Shown here: one piece after another, positions 3,087 through 44,765 of the stretch
Layout: each line of letters begins with the position of its first letter
Position numbering within the stretch: the first letter of the stretch is position 1
Origin: Patescibacteria group bacterium
GTDB lineage: Bacteria > Patescibacteriota > Patescibacteriia > PEXW01
Length of the DNA: 48,297 bases
Assembly (NCBI GenBank): GCA_038065235.1
Contig: JBBTRK010000004.1
Coordinates: forward strand, 1 to 48,297
Reading direction: 5' to 3'
Program-made: the position numbers and the translations under genes
Notes under the pieces: generated by a model
The model's database searches: none
What the model was told of the DNA's origin: nothing
What the model saw: only the letters and a program-made list of their open reading frames with translations

Positions 3087-3364
3087 CGGTTCACTTACCC
3101 CCTCAATAAAAATATGCCAAACCGACTATCACTTCCCGCTCGGCAGTTCATCGTGCCTCTCCTTTTCAGGCATTTCTTTACTGTTCAAGCTCGGGTGAAC
3201 CATGCCATTCAACATTGGTGACGACTTACTCTATGGCGAATTTCTATAGATGAACGTTTTAGTTTGTGCTATTCACTACCTTTCCAAAAAGCGTGATGCA
3301 TAGCGGTTTGTTTGAATATATGCTAGCACGTCTATTTCCGGTTTTCGGCCGAGTTATCCACGAC

Positions 3365-3394
3365 AAAACAGCGCCGTCGCGACGGCGCTGTTTT
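3365..3394. terminator. Bidirectional intrinsic terminator-like hairpin
   Basis: aaaacagcgccgtcgcgacggcgctgtttt is a perfect palindrome with A/T tails, downstream of the methyltransferase. Confidence 0.6.
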
Positions 3395-3462
3395 CTAAAA
3401 AATTTTGATATTTTACCAAATTACAGGCTATTTCGTTGTAACGATACCTAAAGTAAAACGAA

Positions 3463-3990: not shown

Positions 3991-4075
3991 AAGTCAACTG
4001 TAACATAGTGAGCGAGAATAAATATATTTAGAGGAGGGCGATCCGAAGATCGTCCTATGTACGATATATAGCTTC

Positions 4076-9893: not shown

Positions 9894-10006
9894 ATGAAGC
9901 GAAAGCGAATCGTCAAAGTTCTCTGGGTCACTATTCTCATCATCGGCACCTTGAGCATGGTGTTTTTTACCATGATGCCGTTGTTCGGCTTGGGCGGCGC
10001 CGGCTT

Positions 10007-11863
10007 CTAGGGTCGATCGCGGCGCAAGACTGCGAAGAAGGCTTCCTGCGGGATATCCACTTTGCCCATGGCGCGCATCCGGCGTTTGCCCTTCTTCTGC
10101 TTCTCCAGCAGCTTCCGCTTGCGCGTCACGTCACCGCCATAAAGCTTTGCGGTAACATCTTTGCGCATGGCAGACAAGCTGGCAGAAGCAATAACCTTAG
10201 CGTTGATCGCCGCCTGAATCTTTACCTCGAACATCTGCTTGGGTAATATAGTTTTCAAATACTCGACCACTTGGCGGCCGGCACGCTGCGCCTCATCGGC
10301 GTACACCATGCTGGCCAAGGCATCGATACGCTCGGTCGCCACCAGGATATCCATCCGGACGACGTCTGCAGCCCGCGTCCCGAACACCTCGTAGTTGAGC
10401 GACGCGTAACCACTCGACGCACTCTTCAATCTATCATAGAAATCCACGAGGATACCAGCTAACGGCACCTTGCAGTGAATGACCACACGCTGCTCGTCGA
10501 GGTACTCGGTGCTGGTATGCTCACCGCGCTTCTCCACAATGAGCGCCAGCAGCGGCCCAATGGTCTTTGCCGGCGTGACAATATCGACGTTTGCCCACGG
10601 TTCCTCAATGTGGTCCACGTGCGAAGACTCTGGTAAATCTAGCGGGCTCGTCACGGTGACAATCCCTTTGGCATCAGCGGCATCGTACCCCAGCTGCTTG
10701 ACGAGTCGCTCCCGAGCCCGCGCCCCCGAGGGGTTGAGATGCACGCGGTAAGCCACGGATGGAATGGTAACAATGAGGTCGAGGCTGTATTCCCGCTTCA
10801 AACGTTCTTGGACTATATCGACATGGAGCAAACCCAAAAAACCACAACGGAAACCATGACCGAGTGCTTGTGAGTGTTCGGGTTCAAAGGTGAGCGCCGC
10901 GTCATTGAGTTTCAGTTTTGACAAGCCTTCGCGGAGCAAGGGGTAATCGTCCCCTTCTTTGGTAAATAAACTGGCGTGCACCATGGACCGTACTTCACGG
11001 TACCCCGGCAATGGTTCAACCGCATGGTGCTTCACGTCAGTCATGGTGTCGCCTACGCGGGCGTCACCGACACTCTTCACACCTGTAACGACGTAGCCAA
11101 TCTCCCCAGACTTGATAATCGAGGTCGGCGTGAGCTTGGGTTGGAACGTACCCACCTCGAGCGCGATGTTGCTCACCTTCGTCGCCATGAACTGCACGTC
11201 TGTGCCGCGCTGGATCTTTCCCTGCATCACGCGCACGTAGCTAATCACCCCACGGTAATCGTCGAACGTCGAGTCGAACACCAAAGCTCGGAGCGGCGCA
11301 TCTTCATCGACCACTGGCGGTGGGACTAGGTTGATAACGCGATGGAGTAAATCTGCGACACCGACCCCAGTTTTCGCCGAGACGAGGAATATTTCTTCCC
11401 GGCTGCAACCCAGCACCTTAATTATTTCATGAGCAGTTTCTTCGACGCGTGCGTTCGGCAGATCCACTTTGTTAATCGCGGGAATTACGGTGAGCCCCTG
11501 CTCCACAGCCAGGTAGAGGTTGGCTAGAGTCTGCGCTTCTACGCCCTGCGTCGCGTCCACAAGGAGAATTGCCCCTTCGACGGCGGCGAGCGAGCGCGAA
11601 ACTTCGTAGGTGAAGTCCACGTGCCCTGGGGTATCTATGAGATTTAGTTCAAAAGTCTGGCCTTCGTGTTGGTAGGCCATACGCACGGGAGCGAGCTTGA
11701 TGGTAATCCCCCGCTCCCGCTCAATGTCCATTTGATCCAGTAGTTGCGGCTGCATCTCCCGCTTGGTCACGGTGCCGGTTATTTCTAAGAAACGGTCTGC
11801 CAGCGTTGACTTGCCATGGTCGATGTGAGCAATAATGCAGAAGTTGCGAATGTTCGCACTCAT
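10007..11863 (-). CDS. lepA: Translation elongation factor 4 (LepA)
   Basis: IRNFCIIAHIDHGKSTLADR, DTPGHVDF and KDVTAKLYGGDVTRKRKLLEKQK. Confidence 0.99.
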   Translation of the reverse strand: MSANIRNFCIIAHIDHGKSTLADRFLEITGTVTKREMQPQLLDQMDIERERGITIKLAPVRMAYQHEGQTFELNLIDTPGHVDFTYEVSRSLAAVEGAILLVDATQGVEAQTLANLYLAVEQGLTVIPAINKVDLPNARVEETAHEIIKVLGCSREEIFLVSAKTGVGVADLLHRVINLVPPPVVDEDAPLRALVFDSTFDDYRGVISYVRVMQGKIQRGTDVQFMATKVSNIALEVGTFQPKLTPTSIIKSGEIGYVVTGVKSVGDARVGDTMTDVKHHAVEPLPGYREVRSMVHASLFTKEGDDYPLLREGLSKLKLNDAALTFEPEHSQALGHGFRCGFLGLLHVDIVQERLKREYSLDLIVTIPSVAYRVHLNPSGARARERLVKQLGYDAADAKGIVTVTSPLDLPESSHVDHIEEPWANVDIVTPAKTIGPLLALIVEKRGEHTSTEYLDEQRVVIHCKVPLAGILVDFYDRLKSASSGYASLNYEVFGTRAADVVRMDILVATERIDALASMVYADEAQRAGRQVVEYLKTILPKQMFEVKIQAAINAKVIASASLSAMRKDVTAKLYGGDVTRKRKLLEKQKKGKRRMRAMGKVDIPQEAFFAVLRRDRP

Positions 11864-13482
11864 ACAACGACCTTTCCATTCCCATTACGAATAAACTTTC
11901 GTACCCGGCCCCACCAATCCCGAAAGATTTGGACTTCTTCAACGTGTAATAATGACGCCGTCGCAAGGTAAGCCATAATCCCGCCGGTGCCTGCTACCAA
12001 GCCTTGCAAAAAAATTCCAACCAGCGTCCGCATGTCTACTCCCAATGCCGCGAAGCGCAGGAGCGCCCACGCTACGGTGCCAGCCAGTAACGAAGCAATA
12101 ACAATCTTCGTCGTGGTTCGGGCGACACGGGCATCATCCAGCGAGCCAAGACGCTTGCGAAGCACAGCATACAGCACCAGCATGTTGAGTAAACTCGAAA
12201 TAGAAAACGCAAGTGCTAAACCAATAACCCCGAAGTGTTTGGAGAAGTACAACGCACCCACAATATCAACCGCAACTGCAGCTATGCCAACCTTCACCGG
12301 TGTGGCCGTATCGTGCAGGGCATAAAATGACCGGGCGAGGATAGGAATGAGAGCCTGTGCGAAGATCGACAACGTGAAGTACCCTAGCACTTGGGCAGTC
12401 TGGTAAGTCGCTTCCCAGTCAAAGGCTTCGGCACCGACGACCACGCGCACAATTTGCGCCCGCAGCACGAGCAGGAGGATAGATGCCGGAATCATGACGA
12501 CGAGCAAGCGCCGAACCGTACGGGAGAAGTGGCCAATGAACGATTCCATGTCTTTCGCCGCGTACGCTTCCGAAAAAGCTGGGAACACCGCAATTGCCAG
12601 CGACACGCCGAAAACGTTGATGGGGAAGTTCTGCAGGTTGTTGGCAAAGTTAAACTGCGTCAGGCTCCCAGCCGCCAAGCTGGAAGCAATGATCGTAGCG
12701 ATGAGCTGGTCAATTTGATTAACAGCTAAGCCAAAAGTCCGCGGCAGCATGAGCCGGCCAATCTGCCTCACCCCCGCATGCTTGAAATCCAAAATACGTT
12801 GGTACCGAAAACCCAAACGGAACACCCCAGGGATTTGGATGAGCAGGTGTGCCAGCGCACCCACGACCACGCCGTACGCCAGACCAATAATCCCCCAGCG
12901 TGGCACGAACCACGCAATACCCGCGATGATGCCGAGGTTGTAGAGGATTGGTGCCAGGGCAAACGCGAAGAAGCGTTTGAACGAGTTTAGAATGGCCGAC
13001 ACGATGTTGCTGGCGCCGAAGAAGATAATTGCCACCAACATGATGCGGCTGAGCTGGATGGTTGTCGTCAATCTTTCGCCGCTGAATCCTGGCGCGATGA
13101 GCGGCACCAGCTGATTAGCAAATATGAAAAATATAATACCTAAACCTACAATAACAATAAGAAGGAGGTTAAGCACCGAGTTAGCAATACGCCAGGCTTC
13201 ATCATTGTTCGGCGCGCTATCTCCATCGTGCTTCTTCAAGTAACCCACGAACACCGGAATGAACGAAGACGAAAGCGCCCCGAGCACCAGGACGTTGAAA
13301 ATGAAGTCGGGGAGTTTGAATGCAGCGAAGTACGGGTCCAAGGCGCCACCACCGCCGAAGGTCGAGGCGAGCAGCCGGTCGCGAACCAAGCCAAGCACGC
13401 GGCTAAGCACGCCCGTCAGGCCAATAACGATTGCTCCACCCAGGATAGTGGTGGAGAGTTTTAACCAAAGTTTCTTCCACAT
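11860..13482 (-). CDS. murJ: Lipid II flippase MurJ/MviN
   Basis: SRVLGLVRD, AFKLPD, SFIPVF, FYALHDTATP; likely start ATG 13482. Confidence 0.95.
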   Translation of the reverse strand: MWKKLWLKLSTTILGGAIVIGLTGVLSRVLGLVRDRLLASTFGGGGALDPYFAAFKLPDFIFNVLVLGALSSSFIPVFVGYLKKHDGDSAPNNDEAWRIANSVLNLLLIVIVGLGIIFFIFANQLVPLIAPGFSGERLTTTIQLSRIMLVAIIFFGASNIVSAILNSFKRFFAFALAPILYNLGIIAGIAWFVPRWGIIGLAYGVVVGALAHLLIQIPGVFRLGFRYQRILDFKHAGVRQIGRLMLPRTFGLAVNQIDQLIATIIASSLAAGSLTQFNFANNLQNFPINVFGVSLAIAVFPAFSEAYAAKDMESFIGHFSRTVRRLLVVMIPASILLLVLRAQIVRVVVGAEAFDWEATYQTAQVLGYFTLSIFAQALIPILARSFYALHDTATPVKVGIAAVAVDIVGALYFSKHFGVIGLALAFSISSLLNMLVLYAVLRKRLGSLDDARVARTTTKIVIASLLAGTVAWALLRFAALGVDMRTLVGIFLQGLVAGTGGIMAYLATASLLHVEEVQIFRDWWGRVRKFIRNGNGKVVV

Positions 13483-13613
13483 ACGTAGCTGCAGGATACG
13501 AAAAAACCATGCTTTGAGCAAGTCAAACCAAAACAAGCGCGGGCACAGAGACCCACGCTTGTTTGCTCATGTATACATCCCCCCCAGCGCAGGTCTCCGT
13601 GCCTGCGCTGGTC

Positions 13614-13644
13614 AAACAAAAAACCGCACGGTTTCCCGAACGGT
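13614..13644 (-). terminator. Intrinsic terminator closing the 17.06-13.6 kb unit
   Basis: Minus strand ACCGTTCGG-GAAA-CCGTGCGGT followed by TTTTTGTTT. Confidence 0.7.
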
Positions 13645-13647
13645 CAT

Positions 13648-13788
13648 GTCTCTCTCCTCTCCCCTAGCCCACCGATACGTGCGACTGATACCCGGGTTTA
13701 CGTCCTTCCAGCAGGGAGAGAGTCCTAGTTGGATTTTCTGCAAACCTGAGATCGTAGGAAGTATCCGGTGGGCGGGGGCAAAGGAGAC
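13648..13788 (-). ncRNA. Candidate rod-shaped structured RNA (unidentified)
   Basis: GTCTC..GCCCACCG.GATAC pairs with GTATCGGTGGGC..GAGAC; inner helix CAGGTTTGC/GTAAACC; TATACT lies 6 nt upstream and a terminator follows. Confidence 0.45.
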
Positions 13789-13823
13789 GCCTCGAGTATA
13801 AACCTGACGTTTTTTTCTGCATA

Positions 13824-13895
13824 CCCTCCTCTCCCGTAATCCCGCTCTACGGGACTCTGGGAGAAGGGCAAGCAGCGAGTTGAACACTGCTTGCC
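13824..13895 (-). repeat. Divergent copy of the inter-ORF double hairpin
   Basis: GGCAAGCAG..CTGCTTGCC abutting CTTCTCCC...GGGAGAG. Confidence 0.55.
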
Positions 13896-13909
13896 AATGT
13901 ATTGGTAGC

Positions 13910-14140
13910 TTATACCCAATCCGTATACATCCACACAATAAACTTCAAAAGCAGAAGTGCAATGCAGAAGAGAATGAGTCCTCCCAGCATTGTGGTTAGG
14001 TCAGCCATAGTCAGTACTTTTTTGTATACGCCAATTGTGTAACCAATGGCAAACACAATTGGACTAAGAATAGCAAATATGGCCTTACAGAAAACAGCAA
14101 AATCAATGAGAATACAGAGAACAAAAAATACCATTTTCAT
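13910..14140 (-). CDS. Small membrane protein (76 aa)
   Basis: Hydrophobic ORF preceded by SD-like GAGGTG. Confidence 0.65.
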   Translation of the reverse strand: MKMVFFVLCILIDFAVFCKAIFAILSPIVFAIGYTIGVYKKVLTMADLTTMLGGLILFCIALLLLKFIVWMYTDWV

Positions 14141-14185
14141 TTTACACCTCTTTGTTTTATTGTTTTTTTACTCTCGAAAAGATCA

Positions 14186-14617
14186 TTACAGGTAGTTGAA
14201 GGTGACGAGCGCCTTCAGCTGGGGCATGCAGGTTGGGCAGTGCCGCCGGCAACTCATACTGGTTCCTACCAATATAAGCCCGACAACGCAGACCGTAAAA
14301 TTGTTCAGCAGGATATCCCGCGGACTGCCTTGCGCCAAGTCAATTGCGGTGACGAGCACGAAAATTACAGCGAGAACTCCGCCGACGAGCAAGAAACTCG
14401 CCCGCCAGTACCCCGACCACTCAACCTTCGTTAGGTTGCTCAATTTACCGCAGACGACTATGCAAAGTCCGAGCGCAGCAAGGGGTACCAAACCGTTATG
14501 GGCAACGAAGAACAGCATCTGTACGTTCGGTATCGTACCAATGCAGACTAGCAGCAACGCAACGAAGAGCGTGGCAATGATGATGCAAATTTCAAATAGC
14601 GTCTTCGTAAAAGTCAT
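14186..14617 (-). CDS. 4-TM membrane protein with Cys-rich tail (CRRHCPTC)
   Basis: AAGGAGG-atac-ATG at 14617; the longer ORF-track start reads through the hairpin repeat. Confidence 0.7.
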   Translation of the reverse strand: MTFTKTLFEICIIIATLFVALLLVCIGTIPNVQMLFFVAHNGLVPLAALGLCIVVCGKLSNLTKVEWSGYWRASFLLVGGVLAVIFVLVTAIDLAQGSPRDILLNNFTVCVVGLILVGTSMSCRRHCPTCMPQLKALVTFNYL

Positions 14618-14646
14618 GTATCCTCCTTGATTCATGTGTTTTTCTA

Positions 14647-14721
14647 TTTCTCCCCCACCCGTCGAGGCGTACTCAACGTGTAAGGGAGAAAGGCGAACGG
14701 TAGTGGTATGTACTGTTCGCC
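14647..14721 (-). repeat. Inter-ORF double-hairpin repeat, copy 1
   Basis: Variable hairpin followed by TTTCTCCCTTAC-AC-GTTGAG-TACGC-CTCGAC-GG-GTGGGGGAGAAA. Confidence 0.9.
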
Positions 14722-14736
14722 TTTTTTTCAAAGATC

Positions 14737-15198
14737 CTATTCGGGAATAATGTTCCCGATAGCTAGGCTAACTAACGCTACTAGAGCGAAAAGACTGAAA
14801 ACAAAGAATCCCTCGTAATCACTAATAGTACGTAGGCCAATTGCCTGGCCCTCATTCATTGAAACCAATTGGTAACGATTATACCAAATGAAACCATTGA
14901 AGCTTGCCGAGTTCCACTGCTTCATGCCCTGGCCAGCTGGTATCAGAATTATACCAACTTCGGTGGAATCCTTCGTAAGGTACCAGGTTACTGTTTGCTC
15001 CCCGTCTGATACATCGAGATCAGGACTGACTAACAGACGCGTTGAGAAGTCCTTACGAATAGTTTCGGGGATACTCACTTTTGACAGTAGTGATTCAATC
15101 CTGCTCGCTTCAGCTGCGTCAATTGGTTTTGCGTTGACGTTGCCAATGCAGAGTATGATAACCAACACTAGCAATGTGACGATAATTGTGTTTTTCAT
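14737..15198 (-). CDS. Secreted, C-terminally anchored protein, paralog A (153 aa)
   Basis: Signal peptide, C-terminal TM and SD AAGGAGG; shares VSDG..TV.WY.TKD, PAGQGMKQW and YQLVSM.EG.AIGLR with 15320..15781. Confidence 0.85.
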   Translation of the reverse strand: MKNTIIVTLLVLVIILCIGNVNAKPIDAAEASRIESLLSKVSIPETIRKDFSTRLLVSPDLDVSDGEQTVTWYLTKDSTEVGIILIPAGQGMKQWNSASFNGFIWYNRYQLVSMNEGQAIGLRTISDYEGFFVFSLFALVALVSLAIGNIIPE

Positions 15199-15237
15199 TA
15201 TTCCCTCCTTGGGATTTTAAAGGTGTATTGGTTTTTA

Positions 15238-15306
15238 TTTCTCCCCCACCTGTCGAGGCGTGCTCAACGCGTAAGGGAGAAGGACGAGCTGCATATGCAA
15301 CTCGTC
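15238..15306 (-). repeat. Inter-ORF double-hairpin repeat, copy 2
   Basis: GACGAGTTGCAT/ATGCAGCTCGTC followed by TTCTCCCTTACGCGTTGAGCACGCCTCGACAGGTGGGGGAGAA. Confidence 0.9.
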
Positions 15307-15319
15307 ACTTTCCAAAGAA

Positions 15320-15781
15320 CTAATTTTCAAACACGTATCCGATTAATCCAATGATCAATACAGTAACAAACAAAATTACAATCAATAACAAGTACAAATC
15401 AAATCCATCAAAATCCCGAACTATCCTAAGGCCAATTGCCCGGCCTTCACCCATCGAAACTAGTTGGTAGTTACAATAGAATATCGAACCATCAAGTTTC
15501 GTTGGCAGTGTCCACTGCTTCATTCCCTGGCCTGCTGGCATTGGAATAACCCCAAATCTGACGGTGTCTTTGGTGATATACCACATTACGGTCATGTCCC
15601 CGTCCGACACCGCAATATCTGGGTGGCTCGCTAACTCCCGCACGAATTCCTGACGAATATCTACAGGAATATCCACCTTCTGCAGCAACGAATCAATTCG
15701 ATCTTGCTCGAGTTGTGAAGCGTTTGCACTCGCTACACCAACTGCGAGTACAAAAATAACGGTACGAAGAATACTGTTCAT
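15320..15781 (-). CDS. Secreted, C-terminally anchored protein, paralog B (153 aa)
   Basis: Signal peptide, C-terminal TM and SD AGGAGG; clear paralog of 14737..15198. Confidence 0.85.
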   Translation of the reverse strand: MNSILRTVIFVLAVGVASANASQLEQDRIDSLLQKVDIPVDIRQEFVRELASHPDIAVSDGDMTVMWYITKDTVRFGVIPMPAGQGMKQWTLPTKLDGSIFYCNYQLVSMGEGRAIGLRIVRDFDGFDLYLLLIVILFVTVLIIGLIGYVFEN

Positions 15782-15816
15782 ATTTCCTCCTAGGAATCTG
15801 GTTTTTTTAGTTTTAG

Positions 15817-15896
15817 TTTCTCCCCCACCCGTCGAAGTACTTCAACGCGTAAGGGAGAAAAGGAAGGGCAGTAAGGAGCAACTCAACCGCCCTTCT
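15817..15896 (-). repeat. Inter-ORF double-hairpin repeat, copy 3
   Basis: GAAGGGCGG..CTGCCCTTC followed by TTTCTCCCTTACGCGTTGAAGTACTTCGACGGGTGGGGGAGAAA. Confidence 0.9.
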
Positions 15897-15901
15897 CCAA
15901 G

Positions 15902-15995
15902 TGTCATTGCGAGGAAGTGCCTATGGGCACTGACGAAGCAATCCCGTTGAAAAGCGAGATTGCCGCGCCCTCGTGCACTCGGGCTCGCAATGACA
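15902..15995. repeat. REP/MITE-like palindrome of the GTCATTGCGAG...CTCGCAATGAC type
   Basis: Terminal inverted repeats tgtcattgcgag/ctcgcaatgaca; a second copy lies at 35386. Confidence 0.85.
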
Positions 15996-16197
15996 GCGAT
16001 GTTTGTTGGCTGGAAGGGCCTCGCAGCCCTGTATACCTTTTGGGTATCGAGCATCCCTGCTCCGGGCTCTCATCCGCCGGCTATTCCGGACCAGCCAAAT
16101 TTTTTGGTTTCTCATCTCGAACGGCCTTTACTGAAAGACCAACCGAGATAAGTGGGGAATGAATTGCTTCGATTCCCCGAATGTACGTATTACAATC

Positions 16198-16380
16198 CTA
16201 CAGGGCAGCAATGGCAAAGATCAGTATGATCACGCCACAGATACCCGAGGTTATTATTGTTGTGAGGCCCGCATGAACCAAAGTCTGGTTCTGCGCCATT
16301 TTCCCGAATGCCGTTACCACTATGCCAGCGATGACGAACATTACGGCAATACCAATACCAAGAACAAGTATTGAAAGCAT
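16198..16380 (-). CDS. Small 2-TM protein (60 aa)
   Basis: TAAGGAG-aaaaa-ATG; two hydrophobic helices. Confidence 0.7.
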   Translation of the reverse strand: MLSILVLGIGIAVMFVIAGIVVTAFGKMAQNQTLVHAGLTTIITSGICGVIILIFAIAAL

Positions 16381-16400
16381 TTTTTCTCCTTACCAAAATG

Positions 16401-17060
16401 TTTCTTTCTATCAATCTGGAGGTGAGGTAGCCCTGAACCACTCATCCCGCGCATGCGGGATTCGGGTACAGGGCGGGGACGTTTTGGACCGAAGCCCACG
16501 CCCGAGTGATGGTTAAGTGTCTTTGGCAAGCTAGGCCTGCCGCGATACCGCACCATCGAGAAAGTCGCCTCCAAGTTGATAAAAAGAAAGTATTGTTTCT
16601 TCCCTCACTCGGTCTGCAAGACCCCGAGCATGCCACCGCCGTTGGCGGGGTCCCGCAGTAGGCGGTGATCGAGGGGCAGATCGGTTAAGGGAAAAATGAG
16701 TTGTCAATATACATGAGCCTTTGCGTGTAACGATCTGGAGGTGAGACGTAGCCTGCTTTGGACCGAAGCCCGCAGACCAACGAGGGTTGAGTGTCTTTGG
16801 CGAGTAACCCTGTACCAGTCGCTTGCGCTTCCGGTGCAGGGCGAGACCCGCCGCGATACCGCTCCCTCACATCTCGCTTGCTCATCCTTGCGGATGACCA
16901 ACCCCCTCCATATCGTTAGGCACAATCTCTCGACTACGCTCGAGATCTAACGAAAATCGCACTCCTGTGAGAGAGCACAACGATTAAATATGAGGTCCTT
17001 TTGGCCGCTCTCTCTTTCGGCAAAGGGACTGCTTGGGGAATGTTTAGATTTTCAACGTAA
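16401..17060 (-). ncRNA. Long structured leader/ncRNA containing two copies of an unrecognised motif
   Basis: Starts just after the promoter and has no credible ORF. It contains duplicated blocks with compensatory changes, cUUCGg loops, and G-U pairs that favour the minus strand. Confidence 0.65.
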
Positions 17061-17066
17061 CTGAGG

Positions 17067-17095
17067 AGTATACACGCGGGAGTATATCCTGTCAA
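17067..17095 (-). promoter_or_regulatory. sigma70 promoter
   Basis: TTGACA-17 bp-TATACT on the minus strand; +1 near 17060. Confidence 0.85.
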
Positions 17096-17104
17096 TATCA
17101 CAAA

Positions 17105-17137
17105 TGGCTAAGGTTAGCCAAAAGGGCTAAGGTTAGC
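17105..17137. promoter_or_regulatory. Tandem palindromic operator-like sites GGCTAA-GG-TTAGC
   Basis: Two copies 19 bp apart, just upstream of the -35 box. Confidence 0.5.
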
Positions 17138-17167
17138 GGAAAAAGTGATACGTAATCCCCTGAATTT

Positions 17168-17211
17168 CCTCCTCTCCCATTGGGAGAGGGTCCGCGAAGC
17201 GGGGGTGAGGG
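17168..17211. repeat. REP-like hairpin flanking the DUF559 gene
   Basis: cctctcccattgggagagg...gggggtgaggg. Confidence 0.75.
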
Positions 17212-17213
17212 AA

Positions 17214-17558
17214 CTAATCTCGTATCTCGAGGTGAATCTTCTCTAAAACTATTTCTGGCTGCTTTTCAAAATCGTTGTTCCAAACTCGGATTACTTTGTA
17301 CCCTTGAGATCGTAAATATGCATCTCGTACCTGGTCACTTTCTTGATTAACCTGATCGTCATGTTGCCCACCATCTAGTTCAATGACGATGTGTTTTTCA
17401 CGGCAACAAAAGTCTGCCACATATTCACCTATAACAAATTGACGATGAAACTTCAAACCAAAAAATCTACGAGCACGCAATCTCGCCCACATCTTTACTT
17501 CGAATGGGTTTCGCTCCTTCCGCAATTTTCGAGCAATGGGCGTTAAACTATTTTGCAT
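17214..17558 (-). CDS. DUF559 / Vsr-like endonuclease
   Basis: ARKLRK...E.KMWARLR...KFHRQ..IGEYVADF...VIELDGGQH...RDAYLRSQGYKVIRVWN. Confidence 0.92.
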   Translation of the reverse strand: MQNSLTPIARKLRKERNPFEVKMWARLRARRFFGLKFHRQFVIGEYVADFCCREKHIVIELDGGQHDDQVNQESDQVRDAYLRSQGYKVIRVWNNDFEKQPEIVLEKIHLEIRD

Positions 17559-17567
17559 ACTTGGTCA

Positions 17568-17641
17568 ACCTCACCTGCCCTTGCCCTCGCACCTTCATGG
17601 TGCGGGGCTGCGGGCATCCTCTCCTAATAGGAGAGGAGGAT
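17568..17641. repeat. REP-like hairpin flanking DUF559, with a nested CCCCGCACC-type hairpin
   Basis: cctcacc...cctctcctaataggagagg, containing gcaccttcatggtgcgggg. Confidence 0.7.
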
Positions 17642-17652
17642 TCTCAAAACCT

Positions 17653-19878
17653 CTACTTCGCCTTGAACGCCAAGCCGTAGTACTGGTCGCGGTCCATGAT
17701 GGCGCTCATACGGTAACCGTCGCCTTCCGGCACGAAGACGCTTGCGGTGCTGCCTTGCCAAGAGGTCTGCCACGCGTCGGGAATGTGGAGAGTGGACGAG
17801 AAACCCGCGCGGGTCCCGGCTTGCATCTGCGTGAGGAGGCTGTAGGTATCGGTCTTAGCCCAGAGCCCCCCGACGTTGAGCGTGAAAGGGAGCGTGTAGG
17901 TGATTGTCGCTTTCGTCACTTCACCAACCCCAGCGCTCAACCAATTCCCAAAGACGGTATGGCCGGCTTCGGTACTTATCCGAGTGCCCGACGTGTCATC
18001 AATTATTGCACCCGCCTCGAGACGGACGACGTCTGGATCTGGTGTCCGATCTGATGACGGCATCTTAAAACGCTTCACGTCTATTGCTTCAAAACCTGTG
18101 GCGTTAACGAACGTGCTCCCCAGCGGGACGTAAGCACGAATATACACAACATTGCGATCGTGAATGAACCGGGCGTTTCGTACTCCATTATGCTTCCGGA
18201 TGATGGTGAGCGTATCGGTGATGGTGCCGTCAGACGCAATGCGCACATCGTGGCTGTCTACTTCTTCAATGACCCCATCGGTCTTGCCGCCGCCAAGGTT
18301 GGCTCGGTTAATGGCGAGAAAATCTTTGCTCGAGTTGCGTAGCTCCCCTGCCCAGCCCAGGTCGCGGGTGAGCTGCTGCTGTGCTGCATCAGAAAAGTAG
18401 AATTGAATATCGCGGCTGATTAGGTGCTCTTGCATGGTACCCAGCAGCTGCCAGAGCTGCTCTTGCGGCAAGGCGAGTGCCCGCGCGAGAATTTTCGGCG
18501 TCAAGTATCCCATTACCAACTTCGGCTTCGAGTAGTCCACCTTCTCTGCATCTTTAATCACTTCCTGAAGTTTCAGGGTGAGGTTCTCGGCCGTGAAGGT
18601 TTCCCCAACTTCTGGCACTTCCACCGGGCCAGTGAGCTTTAGGAAAGATTGGAGCACAGCCGGGGTCATAGCCACCACACCATCTACGGCAGGCGAACCC
18701 GCGCTCTCGTAGAATTGCAAAATTTTCTTCGCGGACGTCGCAAAGTCTGGGAACCAATTCGCATCTTGGATATTCCAATTGGCTTGGATGAGCTGGAGCG
18801 GCTTCGGCGCCACGACGCGCATCGCGGTCTGGCCGCTGATGTCGTACACGCCACCCGAAGGTACCTCGACTTTAGTTATCGCGCCGTTGATAACGTCGAC
18901 AATCGCCAAGCTGCCAAGAAACCCACCTGTCGGCCGAAGCTCGTTGCTATTCTGGAACGTGAAGAGGTAGCGGTGGCTTGTCCCATCGGCTCCCAGAAAA
19001 GTGCTCAAGAATGTACCAAGGTGTTGCAGGCGGTCGAACTGGAACTGCAAGCTCGGGAGCTGACCTTGAATGTCTGCAAACGCCTGCTGATACTCTGCAG
19101 GTAAATCTTTAGCTTTGACCGTCTGAAGCAATATCGCGGCTCGGTCGAGGTCTGTCACTGCCGGCCCCAGCGAAGTGCGGAACTGCTCAACGACCGCGAG
19201 GAGTGGCGTGGTGGTGCTGGGAGTCGTCAGGACTTCGGCGCTCATCGCCAGCTTCGTGGCTGCATCAGTAATTGCTTGACCAGCCTGGAGCAAAGCTTGG
19301 GCGCGCTTAACCTGGCCCGCCCCGGGAATATTCTTCAGGATGCCAGCCACACTGACAAGCTGGGTCTCCGCGGCAACGAAGGCATCATGGGCCGCGCGAA
19401 GTTCATTTTTACTGGTGCCAAACTGCAAACCCTGGGCAGCCGAACCAGCGGCAACAAGCTGCTGCAAAGCCTGAGCCGAAGTGCCGAGGACTTCGCCTTT
19501 CGCTTTCTGCACATTGCCAATAAGCCGCGCGCCGATAACCCCAGCAGTGAGGAGAATAGCAACAAGCGCGAACCGTGCCGCCGGACCGAACGCGTACTGG
19601 AAACCACCCTCGTGCTTTAATGGTGGCAACACCTTTGCGGCAACCTTCACGGGTGACACGGGCGGCTCAGGTGCTTCGGGTTCTGCCTTCTCGGTACGGT
19701 GAAAAAATCCACGAAACTTCTTGGCCACTGCCTGCTCGCTATCCTCTACCAAAGATAAGAAGTCAACGTGACGGGCCTTCTTCTGTTTCGGTTCAACGGC
19801 AGCAGCGCTGCTCGGACGAGCGCGCAGGTCTAAGACATTCGCCTCGGGGATATCGTCGTGTTGGTACTGCTTGTTCAT
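17653..19878 (-). CDS. DUF4012 domain membrane-anchored protein
   Basis: FQNSNELRPTGGFLGS and DANWFPDFATSA motifs; one TM. Confidence 0.9.
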   Translation of the reverse strand: MNKQYQHDDIPEANVLDLRARPSSAAAVEPKQKKARHVDFLSLVEDSEQAVAKKFRGFFHRTEKAEPEAPEPPVSPVKVAAKVLPPLKHEGGFQYAFGPAARFALVAILLTAGVIGARLIGNVQKAKGEVLGTSAQALQQLVAAGSAAQGLQFGTSKNELRAAHDAFVAAETQLVSVAGILKNIPGAGQVKRAQALLQAGQAITDAATKLAMSAEVLTTPSTTTPLLAVVEQFRTSLGPAVTDLDRAAILLQTVKAKDLPAEYQQAFADIQGQLPSLQFQFDRLQHLGTFLSTFLGADGTSHRYLFTFQNSNELRPTGGFLGSLAIVDVINGAITKVEVPSGGVYDISGQTAMRVVAPKPLQLIQANWNIQDANWFPDFATSAKKILQFYESAGSPAVDGVVAMTPAVLQSFLKLTGPVEVPEVGETFTAENLTLKLQEVIKDAEKVDYSKPKLVMGYLTPKILARALALPQEQLWQLLGTMQEHLISRDIQFYFSDAAQQQLTRDLGWAGELRNSSKDFLAINRANLGGGKTDGVIEEVDSHDVRIASDGTITDTLTIIRKHNGVRNARFIHDRNVVYIRAYVPLGSTFVNATGFEAIDVKRFKMPSSDRTPDPDVVRLEAGAIIDDTSGTRISTEAGHTVFGNWLSAGVGEVTKATITYTLPFTLNVGGLWAKTDTYSLLTQMQAGTRAGFSSTLHIPDAWQTSWQGSTASVFVPEGDGYRMSAIMDRDQYYGLAFKAK

Positions 19879-21005
19879 GCGTGGTGGATAGAAACTGTAT
19901 GGTACACCGCAAGGGTTTGTTCAGCGAGCGTACGCCAGGAGTACCGCTGAATCCACTGCTTCCCAACGAGGATCTGCGCTTGCCGGAAGGTGGAATCCTC
20001 TAATCGTTCTAACGCGGCTAGCATACCACGCACGTCTTTGGGGTTGAAGTAGAGTGCAGCAGTGCCGAGTACCTCTGGCATGCAGGCAGCGTTCGAAGAG
20101 AGCACGGGTGTCCCCTGCGCCATTGCCTCCAGCGGGGGCAGGCCGAAACCTTCGTACAAACTCGGAAATATGTACGCGTGGGCCTGGCGGTAGAGCGCGC
20201 CGAGCGTGACGTCATAGACGTACCCGGGAAACAGGACACGACGGGCGAGCCCTGCCGCGGCGACCTGGGTGCGAAAACGTTCAAGGAAGTAATCGGGCTT
20301 GCACACGACCACGAGCACGAGGTCAGCGTACTTCGCTGGCAACGCTTTGAGAAAGGGAATGAACTGCTCAAGATTCTTGTGTGGGTAGGCGTTCCCCACG
20401 TAGAGCAGGTATCGCCCGGCAATGCCAGAACCTTGCACGAGCGCTGCGTCATCTTTTGCGGGCTGTGGGAACGAGTCGACCGCTTCGTAGGTAACGGTAA
20501 TTTTTTTCGGGTCGTAGCCAAAGTACTGCTGGATATCCTGTTTGGTGAAGTTCGAGACAGTTAGAATGTGTGCTGCGCGGGAAACTGCGCGGCTCAGCGT
20601 GATGCGATACGCCAGCTGCTTGACCCAGTAGGTGAGCGGCCCCAACGTCGTCGCGCGGCGGGTGGGGAAGTGCGTGAGGATAAGATCGTGGATGGTGACG
20701 ATGAACGGTGTGGGCGCCAGGAGCGGAACATTAAAGTGCGGGTAGTGCATGAGCTCAATACCAGCAGCCCGCACCAGCTTTGGCATTTGCCGCTGCTCGG
20801 CCAAGCTGTACCAGCGGAAATCCGCCAGCTGCTTGGTGAACCGCGGATTCGCTGGCGTGTAGTGGTCCCAGTTCTCCTGGCGTAGGAACACTACAAACTC
20901 ATCCGACGAATCCAGTTGCTCGAGGTACGAAAGAAGCCGCTCGGTGTAGCGCCCAAGCCCTTTGCCGAGGCTGCCGTAGAATCTGGCGTCAATGCCGATG
21001 CGCAT
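19875..21005 (-). CDS. Glycosyltransferase family 4
   Basis: [29 protein letters not shown]. Confidence 0.95.
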
Positions 21006-25229: not shown

Positions 25230-25275
25230 GACGTATTGAGTAAAGTGAACACCACGTCTAATGATGTTCACTAGT

Positions 25276-25883
25276 GCCAACGCTAACTGATAAGCCGAAT
25301 TCTGTGCGCAGCACCCCGAGCGAGGCCTTACGGCCGAGTCGAGGGGTACGCGACGACTATCTCTCTAGGACGTACATTGCTGCACGCCTCTTGCAGCCAA
25401 CCCGCCCTGAACCATTCGCCTTGCGGCTTAGGTACAGGGCCTACTTGGCCTTGCACCGGAGAGGGTTTACCACAGGCTGCATCACTGCAGACCCGCGTGA
25501 GCTCTTACTTCACCCCGCACCCGTAAGCACGAGGTTATCCCCTCACCATTACTGTTGCCAATAGTGGTGCGGGGCTCACGATTTCAACCTTACCTGAACC
25601 TCTTGCGAGGCCATCGGCGGTATATTTTCTGTTGCACTGGCCCTAGGCTTGGTCCATCCAAAAACTCGCGAGGACTCTTTGGATGTCTTACTCCCGGTTG
25701 CCGTTAGCAACTCTCCATGACCTCGTTTCTTAGCTTCGGCTGGTAAACCTACGAAAGTATTTCGAGGGCTTGCCGGCCGAAGCCTTGGCGTAGGTCGGTG
25801 TTCGGACTTTCCTCCCTAACACCCGAGCCTCGCTGTAAAGCGAGAAGCGAGTGGTTTAGGGCAGTCGTCTTGTTAACGTAGGC
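25276..25883 (-). ncRNA. rnpB: RNase P RNA (type A), expanded
   Basis: Minus-strand GGAGGAAAGTCCGAAC, GTGCAACAGAAA, GGTAAACCC..CCGGTGCAAGGCCAA and ACAGAATTCGGCTTAT; P1 helix GCCTACGTTAAC/GTTAGCGTTGGC. Confidence 0.95.
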
Positions 25884-26472: not shown

Positions 26473-27630
26473 TTATTCTTTCAACTTTACGCGGAAGAAC
26501 TGCCTTTTGCCTTTTTGATAAATGCCTGGCTTCACTTCTTCCCATGGATTCCTTACGACATTCTGCTCATATTTAATCGCACCCTGTTCAATAAGATTCT
26601 TTGATGCAGTCCCACTTACAGTTAAATGTTGACTTAACATACCAGATACGGTTGTACCTTTTGCAATCGTAATGACTTCAACGTCACTGGGAATCTGTTT
26701 TTTTACATGTACGTTATCAAAATGCTCTACCGATTTTTCCGCGGCTTGTACGCCATAGAACTCCTCCACGATTGCAGTTGCGAGCTTTACCTTTGCACCA
26801 CGCGGCTCTTTCGGTTCAAAGAAATCTTTCGAATCAAGATCCGTGAGCAACTCAGCGTAATTCGGCATTGCGCTATCGGGCAGAGACATAATCTTCCCAA
26901 ACATCTCTTCCGGCGTGTCGAGAAGCCGAATGGCGTTCCCGAGCGTCTTACTCATCTTCTCCTTACCGTCTGTCCCCACGAGCAAGCGCATGCTCATCAC
27001 CTGCTGCGGCTTCTGGCCGAAGAACTCTTGCAAGGGCCGCGCCTGCAGTTCATTGAATGTTTGATCTGTCCCAATCACCGTCACATCAGACTTGAGCATA
27101 ACGGAATCGTAGGCTTGGAGTACTGGGTACACGGGCTCGTGCAAGCCAATAGTTTCTCCAGCTTTCATTCGCTTGTCGAACATATCTCTCTCCAGCATTC
27201 GCGCCACAGTGAAGTTACTCATGATCTTGAGTAACTCTTCAGCCTTCATGTTCTCATACCATTCGCTGTTGCGACGAACCTCGAGCTTCTTCTTATCTAA
27301 GATACGACCAACCTGATCAATGTACGACTGTGCTGCTTCCTCCACCTCCGCTTTCGTTCGGAGGTTGCGGGACTTTGCCTTATCCGTAGGGTCGCCAAAA
27401 CGCGCCGTGAAGTCACCGACCAAGAAAATTACTGTGTGTCCCATGTCCTGAAACTGCCGAAGTTTACGATAAATGACTGCATGGCCAAGGTGTAAATCTG
27501 GCTTAGTCGGGTCAACCCCGTGCTTAATCCGGAGCTTCTTCCCGCTCTTCAAGAGTTGTTCTAAGTCCTTCCTTACAATGAGGTCAGCCACGCCCCGAGT
27601 GAGCAAATCTGCAGGATTATTTTTTAGCAT
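26473..27630 (-). CDS. tyrS: Tyrosine--tRNA ligase
   Basis: GVDPTKPDLHLGH, YPVLQAYD, GTDQ, KMSKT, C-terminal S4-like domain. Confidence 0.98.
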   Translation of the reverse strand: MLKNNPADLLTRGVADLIVRKDLEQLLKSGKKLRIKHGVDPTKPDLHLGHAVIYRKLRQFQDMGHTVIFLVGDFTARFGDPTDKAKSRNLRTKAEVEEAAQSYIDQVGRILDKKKLEVRRNSEWYENMKAEELLKIMSNFTVARMLERDMFDKRMKAGETIGLHEPVYPVLQAYDSVMLKSDVTVIGTDQTFNELQARPLQEFFGQKPQQVMSMRLLVGTDGKEKMSKTLGNAIRLLDTPEEMFGKIMSLPDSAMPNYAELLTDLDSKDFFEPKEPRGAKVKLATAIVEEFYGVQAAEKSVEHFDNVHVKKQIPSDVEVITIAKGTTVSGMLSQHLTVSGTASKNLIEQGAIKYEQNVVRNPWEEVKPGIYQKGKRQFFRVKLKE

Positions 27631-27636
27631 GCACTC

Positions 27637-27665
27637 ATTGTACGGGTCAGCGGAAAGCGGGTCAA
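27637..27665 (-). promoter_or_regulatory. tyrS promoter, leaderless configuration
   Basis: TTGACC-17 bp-TACAAT-6 bp-ATG. Confidence 0.7.
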
Positions 27666-44763: not shown

Positions 44764-44765
44764 GT

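Follow-up and report, generated by a model that had tools for sequence, protein, structure and literature searches.

At least four folded RNA elements around small membrane-protein genes at a fixed locus of a Kerfeldbacteria-like Patescibacteria family

Results

Organization of the locus

The window analysed here is a stretch of 48,297 nucleotides from the genome of a tiny groundwater bacterium of the Patescibacteria, in which the locus takes up positions 13,614 to 17,137. On the minus strand its features run from 17139 to 13615 and comprise palindromes, a near-consensus promoter, a leader, five small ORFs each preceded by an SD, hairpins, a rod-shaped RNA and a terminator (Table 1). Coding sequence accounts for 1,770 of the 3,524 nt (~50%), leaving about half of the locus non-coding, as the sequence-only reading had stated. 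It had also proposed an undescribed RNA-centred system, and a search of this locus against Rfam 15 returned zero matches. The locus is built of separable modules, namely a leader attenuator, two copies of a domain that we call M, a D domain, a hairpin (H) with linker and SD for each cassette ORF, and the T RNA; within the source genome, M, D, T and H were found at this locus only. Comparison with relatives shows that these RNA elements are better conserved than the ORFs between them and that gene content varies. In one RNA run, contigs cover the locus and its flanks at a low, even depth that resembles the DNA run and from which strand and ends are not resolvable.

The flanks are chromosomal, with a DUF4012 gene on one side and murJ on the other, and this order is conserved within the family. 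A DNA search with the locus found matches in 16 of 61 genomes, counting G000, and 11 of 11 other family genomes share DNA with it. In the complete relative G009, the leader and M part lies on one contig and the cassettes, T and murJ on another, so the two groups of modules need not work together. The description of the region as a self-contained unit did not hold: it occupies a fixed place in the chromosomes of a Kerfeldbacteria-like Patescibacteria family and is neither mobile nor self-contained. As had been noted from the sequence, no integrase, RT or transposase domain is found in the five ORFs.

Table 1. Features of the locus in window coordinates
Feature	Position	Strand	Basis
Two tandem 19-nt direct repeats, each with a GGCTAA-N2-TTAGCC palindrome	17102..17139	-	Repeat search
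Sigma-70-type promoter TTGACA-17-TATACT	17067..17095	-	11/12 consensus matches
Leader attenuator	16947..17066	-	Alignment A7 of orthologues
M copy A: P1 UGGAGG/CCUCCA, long arm, UUCG-capped arm	16727..16916	-	Model R1, 107.2 bits, E 4e-25
Spacer separating M copies	16581..16726	-	Conserved in relatives, partly in other families
M copy B, then A-rich linker and SD of 60-aa ORF	16408..16580	-	Model R1, P1 read
ORF 60 aa, two hydrophobic segments, SD-preceded	16198..16380	-	ORF list, SD read
Hairpin then A-rich linker, 5' of D	16111..16152	-	Same arrangement before D in G004, G006, G008
D domain: six-helix junction with tRNA-like acceptor/T-arm module	16003..16101	-	Alignment A8, model R3
Dispersed palindromic repeat (MITE/REP-like insertion), not locus-specific	15902..15996	-	BLAST
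H copy 1, then A-rich linker and SD	15815..15861	-	15875-15812 fold -29 kcal/mol, z -5.42
ORF 153 aa: signal peptide or TM, two helices and beta-sheet domain, C-terminal TM	15320..15781	-	
GC-rich hairpin, then H copy 2 (15283-15236)	15228..15320	-	-42.4 kcal/mol, z -6.04
Second ORF 153 aa, paralogue of first, 43% identity	14737..15198	-	ORF list, alignment
GC-rich hairpin, then H copy 3 (14692-14645)	14637..14736	-	-41.9 kcal/mol, z -6.45
ORF 143 aa, four-TM protein, conserved C-terminal Cys-x-Pro motif	14186..14617	-	Alignment A5
ORF 76 aa, hydrophobic, SD-preceded	13910..14140	-	ORF list, SD read
Hairpin pair, second an H variant, no ORF after it	13826..13900	-	-46 kcal/mol, z -8.19
Likely T promoter: weak -35 TATGCA, 17-nt spacer, TATACT	13795..13823	-	Read by eye
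T RNA, unbranched rod, ~165 nt	13634..13797	-	Alignment A4, model R2 152.8 bits
Intrinsic terminator after T, hairpin and U6	13615..13650	-	-15.1 kcal/mol, z -2.41

A conserved promoter precedes a leader with an attenuator

The operator-like palindromes and the promoter claimed from the sequence were both confirmed. The palindromes sit immediately 5' of the -35 box and are conserved in the loci of 8 relatives; the 8 relatives compared also retain both promoter hexamers. Elsewhere in the genome the same palindrome lies 5' of further promoter-like sites (C6:36208 and C21:1516); it is thus a general promoter-proximal site rather than one specific to this locus. The promoter is the best of six promoter-like sites in the stretch, a number that is not enriched (shuffled sequences give 4.7 ± 2.3), and the weight of the call rests on its quality and conservation, not on the site count.

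The leader, 17066-16381, spans 686 nt and holds no SD-preceded ORF, in agreement with the ~680 nt of non-coding structure reported before the 60-aa ORF. Its attenuator contains a covarying hairpin with an invariant GA-rich loop (~17014-17008), a CU-rich partner (~16975-16969), and a short terminator-like hairpin with a U-run (-5.9 to -9.4 kcal/mol across orthologues). In the MFE fold the GA block pairs with the CU block in six of eight orthologues, and the loop hairpin and terminator form in the other two; the window copy folds with z = -1.64. With a strong promoter and two upstream palindromes, the transcript would start near 17060, and the attenuator would then choose between stop and read-through, the GA-rich loop pairing with the CU-rich stretch downstream or the latter joining the small terminator hairpin and U-run.

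The M domain is a covarying RNA next to an SD

M is a ~130-nt multi-stem domain present as two tandem copies, the only two matches in the source genome. Copy A carries a lineage-specific insertion within its long arm. Copy B scores 67.5 bits with R1 on 16579-16454, its match being cut back by a short dispersed repeat inserted on the 3' side (~16474-16430 matches C9:31432), and its full P1 can be read. The spacer contains a conserved stretch with UUGACAA, a helix and an inserted GC-rich hairpin; the leader hairpin at ~16671-16634, within this spacer, matches four places on C7 and C21. Compensatory changes occur in 18 of 36 pairs of the seed alignment (nine sequences). Across 33 distinct genome-derived copies, both sides change in 27 of the 36 pairs, and the share of paired cells is 94.8%, compared with 69.5% in shuffles and 36-47% in slid controls. 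The covariation score was reached by none of 500 shuffles, and 23 metagenome copies gave the same covariation picture. M is a covarying folded RNA.

In the invariant closing helix P1, an SD-like strand (UGGAGG) pairs with an anti-SD strand (CCUCCA); the inner six pairs of P1 are unchanged in 30-32 of the 33 copies, while helices 2-5 covary freely. A third partner, the SD of the ORF, would explain why P1 alone never covaries. The last M copy is followed by an A-rich linker, then by an SD and a small TM or membrane-anchored ORF; here the linker would set M ~25-35 nt ahead of the SD of the 60-aa ORF. In the folded state of M, perhaps stabilised by a putative ligand or protein, P1 would hold the anti-SD strand and leave the SD of the ORF free; with P1 open, the anti-SD strand could mask that SD. 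When the 5' strand of P1 is omitted, the MFE fold pairs the anti-SD strand with the downstream SD in 5 of 8 cases, which supports such a switch weakly, since complementarity is expected from the sequences themselves.

Within the family, 9 of 12 genomes carry M; the order yields 10 of 13, and the class sample 9 of 151. A contig database yielded 28 pattern matches, 15 of them confirmed by the model, on contigs titled Kerfeldbacteria, Patescibacteria, Saccharibacteria, 'bacterium' or as auto-labelled MAGs. Judging from these genome and contig searches, M appears to be limited to Kerfeldbacteria-like Patescibacteria. The number of copies per locus ranges from one to three, some being replaced by filler that retains P1 only. 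In other families M stands 5' of unrelated membrane proteins of 38-292 aa, and the genes downstream of M give no metabolic clue.

These properties bear on whether the 5' 650-700 nt (leader, M copies and perhaps D) is a 5' UTR or a stand-alone large ncRNA that forms an RNP with neighbouring membrane proteins, as OLE RNA works with OapA, which was one of two readings offered earlier. In favour of an ncRNA, the region is long and modular, contains several covarying domains and is highly conserved, more so than the ORFs; one four-TM protein recurs in the family, and the terminator-like hairpin of the leader would allow short RNA products. Nevertheless, we consider an independent ncRNA unlikely: no test favoured it, no match to OLE or another large-RNA family and no OapA-like family was found, M varies in number and can be reduced to P1, its partner proteins are not fixed, and the regular abutment of the last M copy on an SD and start codon is the anatomy of a cis-regulator.

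The ORFs and the hairpins that precede them

All five ORFs previously listed (60, 153, 153, 143 and 76 aa) are present on the minus strand. At the position of the 60-aa ORF, relatives carry unalignable small two-TM ORFs. Two related cluster representatives were found for the first 153-aa ORF, and the structure model of the 153-aa protein (pLDDT 72) matched nothing in the PDB at E <= 0.001. The 143-aa ORF is counted from the SD-preceded ATG at 14617, the ORF listing extending to a TTG at 14731; its product is 25-37% identical to four relatives, has 13 representatives among 1.84 billion proteins and, alone among the cassette proteins, recurs across the family. Pfam gave no family above cut-off for the 60-aa ORF and none for the 76-aa ORF. 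By sequence comparison, the ORFs appear to be lineage-restricted orphans that vary among relatives, and the locus is best explained as encoding small membrane or secreted proteins of the envelope, in a variable set. Neither SRP RNA nor Ffh nor FtsY was detected in the source organism's class.

The conserved hairpins described between the later ORFs correspond to three copies of H, 83-89% identical, and each cassette ORF is preceded by a conserved hairpin, an A-rich linker and an SD. The three H stretches fold with z of -5.4 to -6.5 (down to -8.2 with the variant), and covariation is confined to 1 of 17 pairs, the structure being argued by energy and sequence conservation only. In the loci of relatives compared, an SD and start codon lie within 80 nt 3' of 15 of 17 H-type hairpins, and the H variant stands before ORFs in G006, G009 and G011. 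The hairpin pair, linker and SD of each later cistron probably define and stabilise a processed mRNA, or bind a regulator.

A tRNA-like domain lies between the first ORF and the cassettes

The further structured block reported after the 60-aa ORF is present and structured, but part of it is a dispersed repeat, which has 14 BLAST matches at ~12 places on six other contigs and occurs in relatives too. The remainder includes D (z = -3.34, 100.3 bits with R3), strong matches to which are confined to five family genomes. Of 16 loci elsewhere with weak R3 matches, 14 are tRNA genes, with alignments spanning the acceptor stem and T arm; ARAGORN at default settings called no tRNA at D (0/4). The T-loop likeness is degenerate in the window copy and weaker there than in G004, G008 and G010, and 5 of 28 pairs covary in an alignment of five sequences (effectively three distinct). 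D probably acts as a processing or stabilising signal, the acceptor/T-arm module being of the kind recognised by RNase P.

A tRNA-resembling domain that detectors no longer call, the dispersed palindromic repeat, the two short dispersed hairpins inserted in the locus and the differing gene content could all suggest that the non-coding parts are non-functional debris of a recombination-prone variable region: decayed genes, a decayed tRNA gene and palindromic repeats. We disfavour this as highly improbable, given the compensatory changes by which M and T retain their folds in different genera and families, the stronger conservation of the RNA elements than of the intervening ORFs, and the restriction of M, D, T and H to this one place in the genome.

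T is a rod-shaped RNA that stays with murJ

The final rod-like RNA and its terminator were also borne out. The rod of T is closed by a long stem and contains a conserved internal loop; its apical loop is CU-rich and invariant. Compensatory changes occur in 15 of 35 pairs, such that M and T together substantiate the claim that the non-coding half is foldable. Model R2 finds one copy per genome, in the family only (3/151 in the class sample), and T lies 5' of murJ on the same strand in 10 of 10 aligned family loci. Terminator-like hairpins occupy the equivalent place in relatives. The putative T promoter escaped the promoter scan because its -35 matches only 3/6; the corresponding site in G004, G001 and G002 reads TTGCAA or TTGCCA, then 16 nt of spacer, then TATACT. 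T likely has its own promoter, and the stretch would hold at least two transcription units.

T would thus be a separate single-copy small RNA gene staying with murJ. Its CU-rich apical loop is complementary to the GA-rich leader loop and to purine-rich H/SD sequences, and T may accordingly act in trans on the locus, or else be a leader of murJ. A 7-nt loop-loop complementarity between T and leader exists in 7 of 7 genomes holding both elements; with the GA 7-mer occurring 60 times in the source genome, this interaction is only a possibility.

It is also conceivable, though we favour it less, that T lies outside the system, as a riboswitch-like regulatory leader of murJ (folded domain plus terminator) or as the divergent 6S RNA of this lineage. 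One or two terminator hairpins follow T, and in G004 the last ends ~25 nt before the murJ start, leaving no space for a clear separate promoter; however, variable insertions of 80 to ~570 nt separate T from murJ, an odd arrangement if aptamer and platform were coupled. A single-copy ~165-nt rod with closing stem, conserved internal loop and apical arm recalls 6S RNA, for which the Rfam model finds nothing in the source genome at E <= 10. T, too, is without a match to that model, and its internal loop of ~8 x 9 nt is small compared with the 6S central bubble. Moreover, a housekeeping RNA should be traceable beyond one family.

A type I toxin-antitoxin-like arrangement, with the hydrophobic ORF after M as a membrane toxin, its SD hidden by the folded 5' UTR, and T as the antitoxin sRNA, would accommodate the poorly conserved two-TM ORFs of 38-88 aa directly after M in many loci, the potential of the SD-like/anti-SD helix for SD sequestration, and the complementarity of T and leader. 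It seems quite improbable, as T is not antisense to the ORF but lies at a distance of 2.4 kb and remains with murJ even in G009, whose leader is elsewhere, M precedes membrane proteins of 119-292 aa in other families, and the ORFs have strong SDs and stand in multi-gene arrays.

Discussion

The observations of the sequence-only reading are confirmed and its interpretation is partly supported. Homologues show covariation, and linkage to these ORFs is not conserved, the 143-aa protein alone recurring. A processed polycistronic mRNA for surface proteins, the other reading it offered, is favoured by anatomy: an attenuator, SD-linked domains before ORFs, a tRNA-like domain, and a hairpin, linker and SD for each cassette. 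We place at roughly 0.55 the probability that the locus comprises an operon for envelope proteins, regulated by RNA and probably processed, with a neighbouring small RNA. Around its few small membrane-protein genes, this bacterium carries at least four folded RNA elements that are absent from catalogues; most likely they control and process the mRNA of these genes, and expression of the proteins is best explained as being governed mainly at the RNA level.

Organization and conservation of the locus

The window is contig C4 of an 895-kb genome (G000; 21 contigs, 93% complete). All of the features listed by the sequence-only reading, from the tandem palindromes and promoter to the five small ORFs (60, 153, 153, 143, and 76 aa), final rod-like RNA, and terminator, are present on the minus strand, where DUF4012 and DUF559 genes, identified by domain searches, precede the stretch and murJ and then lepA follow it. 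That reading had described a self-contained unit, a description that gives way to one of a fixed syntenic locus between the DUF4012 gene and murJ. Related DNA was found in 16 of the 61 genomes searched (G000 counted), among them all 11 other genomes of the family, and BLAST comparison shows that the order DUF4012, locus, murJ is retained in the fetched loci. In the complete, nine-contig genome G009, the leader and M occupy a mid-contig position on C2, as do the cassettes, T, and murJ on C1; therefore, the modules are separable. The G008 version of the locus is ~9.3 kb long. Across the family, the conserved portions of the locus are noncoding, namely the promoter and leader, M (a ~130-nt multistem leader domain in two tandem copies, A and B), D (a tRNA-like six-helix domain), the H hairpins (repeated before cassette ORFs), and T (a ~165-nt rod RNA). 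The ORFs between these RNA elements vary from genome to genome, so the conserved linkage to these particular ORFs that the earlier reading looked for does not hold.

Features of the locus and its flanking genes
Feature	Position	Strand	Remark
DUF4012 gene	19878-17653	-	first in minus-strand order
DUF559 gene	17558-17214	-	between DUF4012 gene and studied stretch
Leader	17066-16947	-	eight-ortholog alignment
M copy A	16916-16727	-	leader
M copy B	16580-16408	-	leader
D domain	16101-16003	-	after 60-aa ORF
Dispersed palindromic repeat	15996-15902		immediately downstream of D
T RNA	13797-13634	-	followed by terminator
murJ	likely start 13482	-	downstream of studied stretch

Searches with Rfam 15 found an RNase P RNA and two tRNAs in the window, all outside 13614-17137, and zero matches at gathering scores within 13614-17137. 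At E ≤ 10 the stretch gave seven chance-level matches (13.7 to 19.4 bits against cut-offs of 40 to 150), all to eukaryotic miRNA, lncRNA, or snoRNA models or to a 28-nt hairpin, and there was no Rfam-level match in it to OLE, GOLLD, ROOL, HEARO, raiA, T-box, or the known riboswitches and ribozymes. M, D, T, and H are outside Rfam 15, in agreement with the proposal that the system is undescribed. Our searches of the literature on structured and regulatory RNAs found no description of M, D, T, or H, and nothing on structured RNAs of Kerfeldbacteria or Patescibacteria.

Elsewhere in the window, the RNase P RNA match (25275-25880, minus strand; 150.8 bits) spans 606 nt against a 367-position model, which indicates large insertions. 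AT-rich islands occupy positions 1-4000, 27000-30000, 37000-40000, and 43000-47000 (GC 0.35 to 0.48, versus ~0.55 elsewhere), and GC is also lowered at the studied locus (0.46 in 14001-16000). A metatranscriptome run (X16) contained 47% of the sampled words and gave contigs in 27 of the 30 bins of 10000-20000, at depths of 0 to 4; this RNA cover is about as even as that of a DNA run (X11; 29 of 30 bins) and does not resolve strand, start, or end.

M is a covarying domain closed by an invariant helix

Besides a long arm, M has a UGGAGG/CCUCCA closing helix (P1) and an arm capped by UUCG, after which comes a conserved AAA. RNAalifold analysis of nine M copies from relatives yielded 36 pairs, 18 of them with compensatory changes. 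Among 33 distinct genome-derived copies, in an alignment whose fitting to the model biases it in favor of covariation, 94.8% of cells are paired, compared with 69.5% after shuffling and 36 to 47% when partners were slid; 27 of the 36 pairs change on both sides, and none of 500 shuffles matched any measure. In a second set of 23 metagenome copies, also model-fitted and with P1 fixed by the search pattern, 26 of the 36 pairs change on both sides. The inner six pairs of P1 are constant in 30 to 32 of the 33 genome-derived copies, a set not chosen by pattern, and all other M helices covary. M thus has the covariation-supported, conserved folded domain expected of a riboswitch.

The covariance model of M (R1) has two matches in G000, both in this locus. 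Across genomes, it detects M in 9 of 12 from the family, 10 of 13 from the order, and 9 of 151 in the class sample, where M spans four families with at most three copies per locus. A pattern scan of the genomes of 185,579 species returned 28 stretches, of which R1 confirmed 15, all of the Patescibacteria kind, and rejected 13, from unrelated phyla. The corresponding metagenome scan returned 56 stretches, from which R1 confirmed 15 loci containing 23 M copies.

Some M copies are degenerate, P1 alone persisting around filler. In six fetched loci (L016, L019, L021, L025, L026, and L042), runs of 7- to 8-nt units of the CUUANGG or UAUGGCU type fill variable loops that belong to the leader hairpin and to degenerate M copies, and some M interiors are wholly replaced with P1 kept. 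A stretch of the ACGUUGACAAYU type follows M, other families included (window ~16716-16700; L049, L050, L085, L092, and L042). Both the opening bases of the transcript and the 5′ strand of the inner H stem look similar to it, and it may be a shared recognition site. An internal promoter at the UUGACAA of this spacer was considered and rejected, there being no properly spaced −10 box.

The last M copy is typically followed by an A-rich linker, a Shine–Dalgarno (SD) sequence, and a small two-TM ORF or a membrane-anchored protein (38 to 292 aa), and these last copies lie 25 to 60 nt upstream of the SD and start codon. The 3′ strand of P1 presumably has eight bases in common with the usual 16S rRNA 3′ end. 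In the proposed mechanism, this strand would serve as an anti-SD that masks the SD of the ORF once P1 opens, and a third partner would keep P1 invariant. In folds computed without the 5′ strand of M, the anti-SD strand pairs with the downstream SD in five of eight cases, a result that carries little weight because the complementarity is built into the sequences. No ligand candidate emerges from the gene context downstream of M.

M shares with SD-sequestering riboswitches and with tandem aptamer arrangements such as the glycine riboswitch a covarying, multistem 5′-leader domain that is often tandem, a position directly ahead of an SD, and a closing-helix strand that could mask this SD. However, M belongs to no Rfam family, its P1 is itself an invariant SD-like/anti-SD duplex, the genes downstream encode orphan membrane proteins instead of enzymes or transporters of a recognizable pathway, and it occurs in very few lineages (9 of the 151 class genomes and 15 confirmed metagenome loci). 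One 9-nt stretch of M resembles T-box sequence; a T-box identity was rejected, as the model does not match M and the genes behind it have no relation to amino acids. The covariation support for M is comparable to that of accepted RNA families and a P1 made of an SD/anti-SD helix is unusual, which together make M a good candidate for a regulator of a new sort, either riboswitch-like or directed at the ribosome.

The leader has the anatomy of an attenuator

Both promoter hexamers and the two palindromes upstream of them are maintained in eight relatives. The same palindrome also precedes other promoter-like sites of G000, on contigs C21 (before a leucyl-tRNA-synthetase-like gene) and C6, which rules it out as a locus-specific operator and marks it as a general promoter-proximal site. 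On C6 (~36208 to 35700, minus strand), a second TTGACA...TATACT promoter with this palindrome upstream is followed by ~450 nt without an ORF and then by a 270-aa gene; the interval may be another noncoding RNA or a long leader.

Alignment of eight leader orthologs reveals a hairpin with a genus-variable stem and an invariant GA-rich loop, downstream of which an invariant CU-rich stretch gives way to a small hairpin with a U-run behind it. In the minimum free energy (MFE) fold, the GA block pairs with the CU block in six of the eight orthologs, and the loop hairpin together with the terminator hairpin (−5.9 to −9.4 kcal/mol) forms in two. The leader thus has the features that characterize intrinsic-terminator attenuators: a terminator and an anti-terminator pairing that exclude each other, and a U-rich run behind them. 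From these predicted folds we infer a switching function for what has the anatomy of a terminator/anti-terminator switch.

D resembles the acceptor/T-arm module of tRNA

Between the 60-aa ORF and D lie a hairpin and then an A-rich linker, the arrangement otherwise seen ahead of ORFs. The six-helix junction of D is kept in G004, G006, G008, and G010, relatives within the family; compensatory changes affect 5 of 28 pairs, a count drawn from only five sequences, and the window copy has a folding z of −3.34. The covariance model of D (R3) scores 100 to 111 bits in five family genomes and only 20 to 28 bits elsewhere in the class. At 14 of the 16 loci checked among these weak outside matches a tRNA gene lies exactly at the match (eight are Ser or Tyr tRNAs), and the D-to-tRNA alignments extend through the T arm and acceptor stem. 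Dedicated tRNA searches did not recover D: ARAGORN at default settings called none of four D copies a tRNA, giving inconsistent calls only at much lowered thresholds, and found two tRNAs in the window, neither at D; the Rfam tRNA model had no match on D at E ≤ 10. D thus has the acceptor-stem/T-arm module of a tRNA-like element, with less resemblance to tRNA in the copy in the window.

D would probably act as a processing or stabilizing element, for which RNase P is the obvious candidate. tRNAs and tRNA-like structures serve RNase P as processing signals in transcripts that are mixed or polycistronic, such as E. coli secG-leuU (PMC2241853). D is like such signals in its acceptor-like closing stem, T-arm-like hairpin, and position between cistrons, but differs in having six helices and no recognizable anticodon arm, in going uncalled by ARAGORN and Rfam, and in being a putative RNase P target. 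D would extend the use of tRNA-like signals within bacterial mRNAs.

The palindromic repeat just downstream of D is ~95 nt long and MITE/REP-like; it occurs at ~12 further places on contigs C1, C6, C7, C8, C9, and C12 as well as in relatives and, when translated, gives spurious short ORFs. The spacer and M copy B also contain inserted short hairpins, two in all, that recur elsewhere in G000.

H hairpins precede variable membrane-protein ORFs

Each of the later ORFs is preceded by a GC-rich hairpin, H, an A-rich linker, and a strong SD. The H-bearing folds have energies of −29 to −46 kcal/mol (z −5.4 to −8.2), and in the fetched loci an SD and start codon lie within 80 nt after an H-type hairpin in 15 of 17 cases, the exceptions preceding D and T. 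H is conserved in sequence with almost no covariation, at 1 of 17 pairs (12 copies), which suits a protein- or RNA-binding site as well as a structural element. When the stretch was compared with its own genome by BLAST, the H-bearing intervals matched only each other, inside the stretch. H was also considered as an integron attC site and rejected. An integron array would have an integrase and attC sites downstream of each cassette, and H precedes its ORFs in the transcript, at a syntenic locus. Pfam searches found no recombinase domain in the five ORFs and the two upstream genes, bearing out the earlier observation that no mobile-element enzyme lies inside.

None of the five ORFs scores above a Pfam cut-off, and word-indexed homology searches of the ORF proteins returned just one and two cluster representatives. 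The 143-aa four-TM protein has 25 to 37% identity to proteins in four relatives and belongs to a family, without a name, of 13 representatives among 1.84 billion proteins. Relatives of the 153-aa paralogs are confined to the genus. The predicted 153-aa structure (pLDDT 72, pTM 0.56) contains a signal/TM helix, two helices, a β sheet, and a C-terminal TM helix; it had no match in the PDB at E ≤ 0.001, and the protein had no usable match in the atlas.

T is a family-specific rod RNA tied to murJ

T is alignable in ten family loci, and RNAalifold analysis shows an unbranched rod of 35 pairs, 15 of them compensatory; for T, as for M, the covariation that the sequence-only reading called for is found. 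A conserved −10 element, TATACT, lies directly upstream, and the −35 element, judged by eye, is good in the relatives G004, G001, and G002 and weak in the window. The covariance model of T (R2) finds a single copy per genome, in the family only (3 of 151 class genomes), and detects no T in 19 M-bearing loci of other lineages. T invariably lies just upstream of murJ, G009 included. In all seven genomes that have both elements, seven nucleotides of the invariant CU-rich apical loop of T are complementary to the GA loop of the leader; the 7-mer complementary to the T loop occurs 60 times in the genome.

T may be a trans-actor on the locus, a murJ leader, or a divergent 6S RNA. 6S RNA, which binds RNA polymerase, is rod-shaped and opens into a large central bubble. 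T is similar in being a single-copy rod of ~165 nt that has an apical arm and a closing stem as well as a conserved internal loop, but its internal loop is small and it is found in one family only; the 6S model has no match on T or anywhere in the genome at E ≤ 10. As a trans-actor, T may be compared with the C-rich-loop regulatory small RNAs of Firmicutes, the UCCC-motif Rsa family (PMC2790875). The likeness lies in the apical loop of a stable small RNA, which is invariant, rich in pyrimidines, and complementary to purine-rich, SD-like sequences, here those of the neighboring transcript with which T would pair. T differs in having no sequence relationship to them, in forming a long rod and not short hairpins, and in its tie to murJ. 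Nor does T fit a type I toxin–antitoxin pair, which would require an overlapping or antisense small RNA: it lies 2.4 kb downstream on the same strand and shares with the leader the 7-nt complementarity alone. T is an additional lineage-specific small RNA tied to the lipid II flippase gene.

A conserved hairpin that resembles a terminator and has a U6 run stands about 25 nt before the likely ATG of murJ, and no SD is evident there (window ~13482-13560, and the same place in L017, L018, L019, and L024). This suggests that murJ is under read-through control or that its message is near-leaderless.

The lineage appears to lack a signal recognition particle

Covariance models of the SRP RNA gave no match in the genomes searched (RF00169, 0 of 12 in the family; RF01854, 0 of 1). 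In 41 class genomes (G000 and 40 relatives), neither the Ffh M domain (PF02978) nor the SRP54 GTPase domain (PF00448) was found at E ≤ 1e-5, and TIGR00959 had no match in G000 (0 of 1). All 14 control genomes were positive in the protein-family searches, and 35 of the 41 class genomes are at least 90% complete. Neither T nor M shows the combination of model match and Ffh that defines SRP RNA, and T was further rejected as an SRP RNA for having no GNRA-capped apical motif. The lineage appears to be without any signal recognition particle; our literature search found nothing on SRP loss in Kerfeldbacteria or Patescibacteria. If confirmed, this failure to find Ffh, FtsY, and SRP RNA among 41 class genomes would matter in its own right.

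A proposed RNA-regulated operon for envelope proteins

The sequence-only reading had proposed an RNA-centered system, either like OLE RNA or a processed polycistronic mRNA. The emphasis on RNA was largely right; of the two forms, a processed, RNA-regulated operon fits better than an OLE-like ribonucleoprotein. OLE RNA works with a membrane partner, OapA, and the likeness lies in a large, conserved, structured RNA beside genes for small multipass membrane proteins in organisms of unusual lifestyle. However, the stretch has no sequence or structure match to the OLE model, its RNA is modular, variable in copy number, and abuts start codons, its proteins have no recognized family, and no oapA-type partner gene lies beside it, all five ORFs being below Pfam cut-offs.

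Within such a proposed operon, M may be a new class of regulatory RNA in which P1 is an internal copy of the ribosomal SD/anti-SD duplex and which would act as a ligand- or protein-gated translation switch for small membrane proteins. Together with the tRNA-like processing domain, the per-cistron hairpins, and the trans-acting rod RNA, M would then form an RNA-run system of envelope-protein expression in a lineage apparently without SRP. We hold this reading tentatively, at a probability of about 0.3.

Patescibacteria have tiny genomes and few known regulatory RNAs, and the locus contains ~1.7 kb of folded, conserved RNA absent from Rfam 15. The genes that it would control are those of orphan envelope proteins in organisms thought to live attached to other cells, and the locus may thus be relevant to surface remodeling in these cells.
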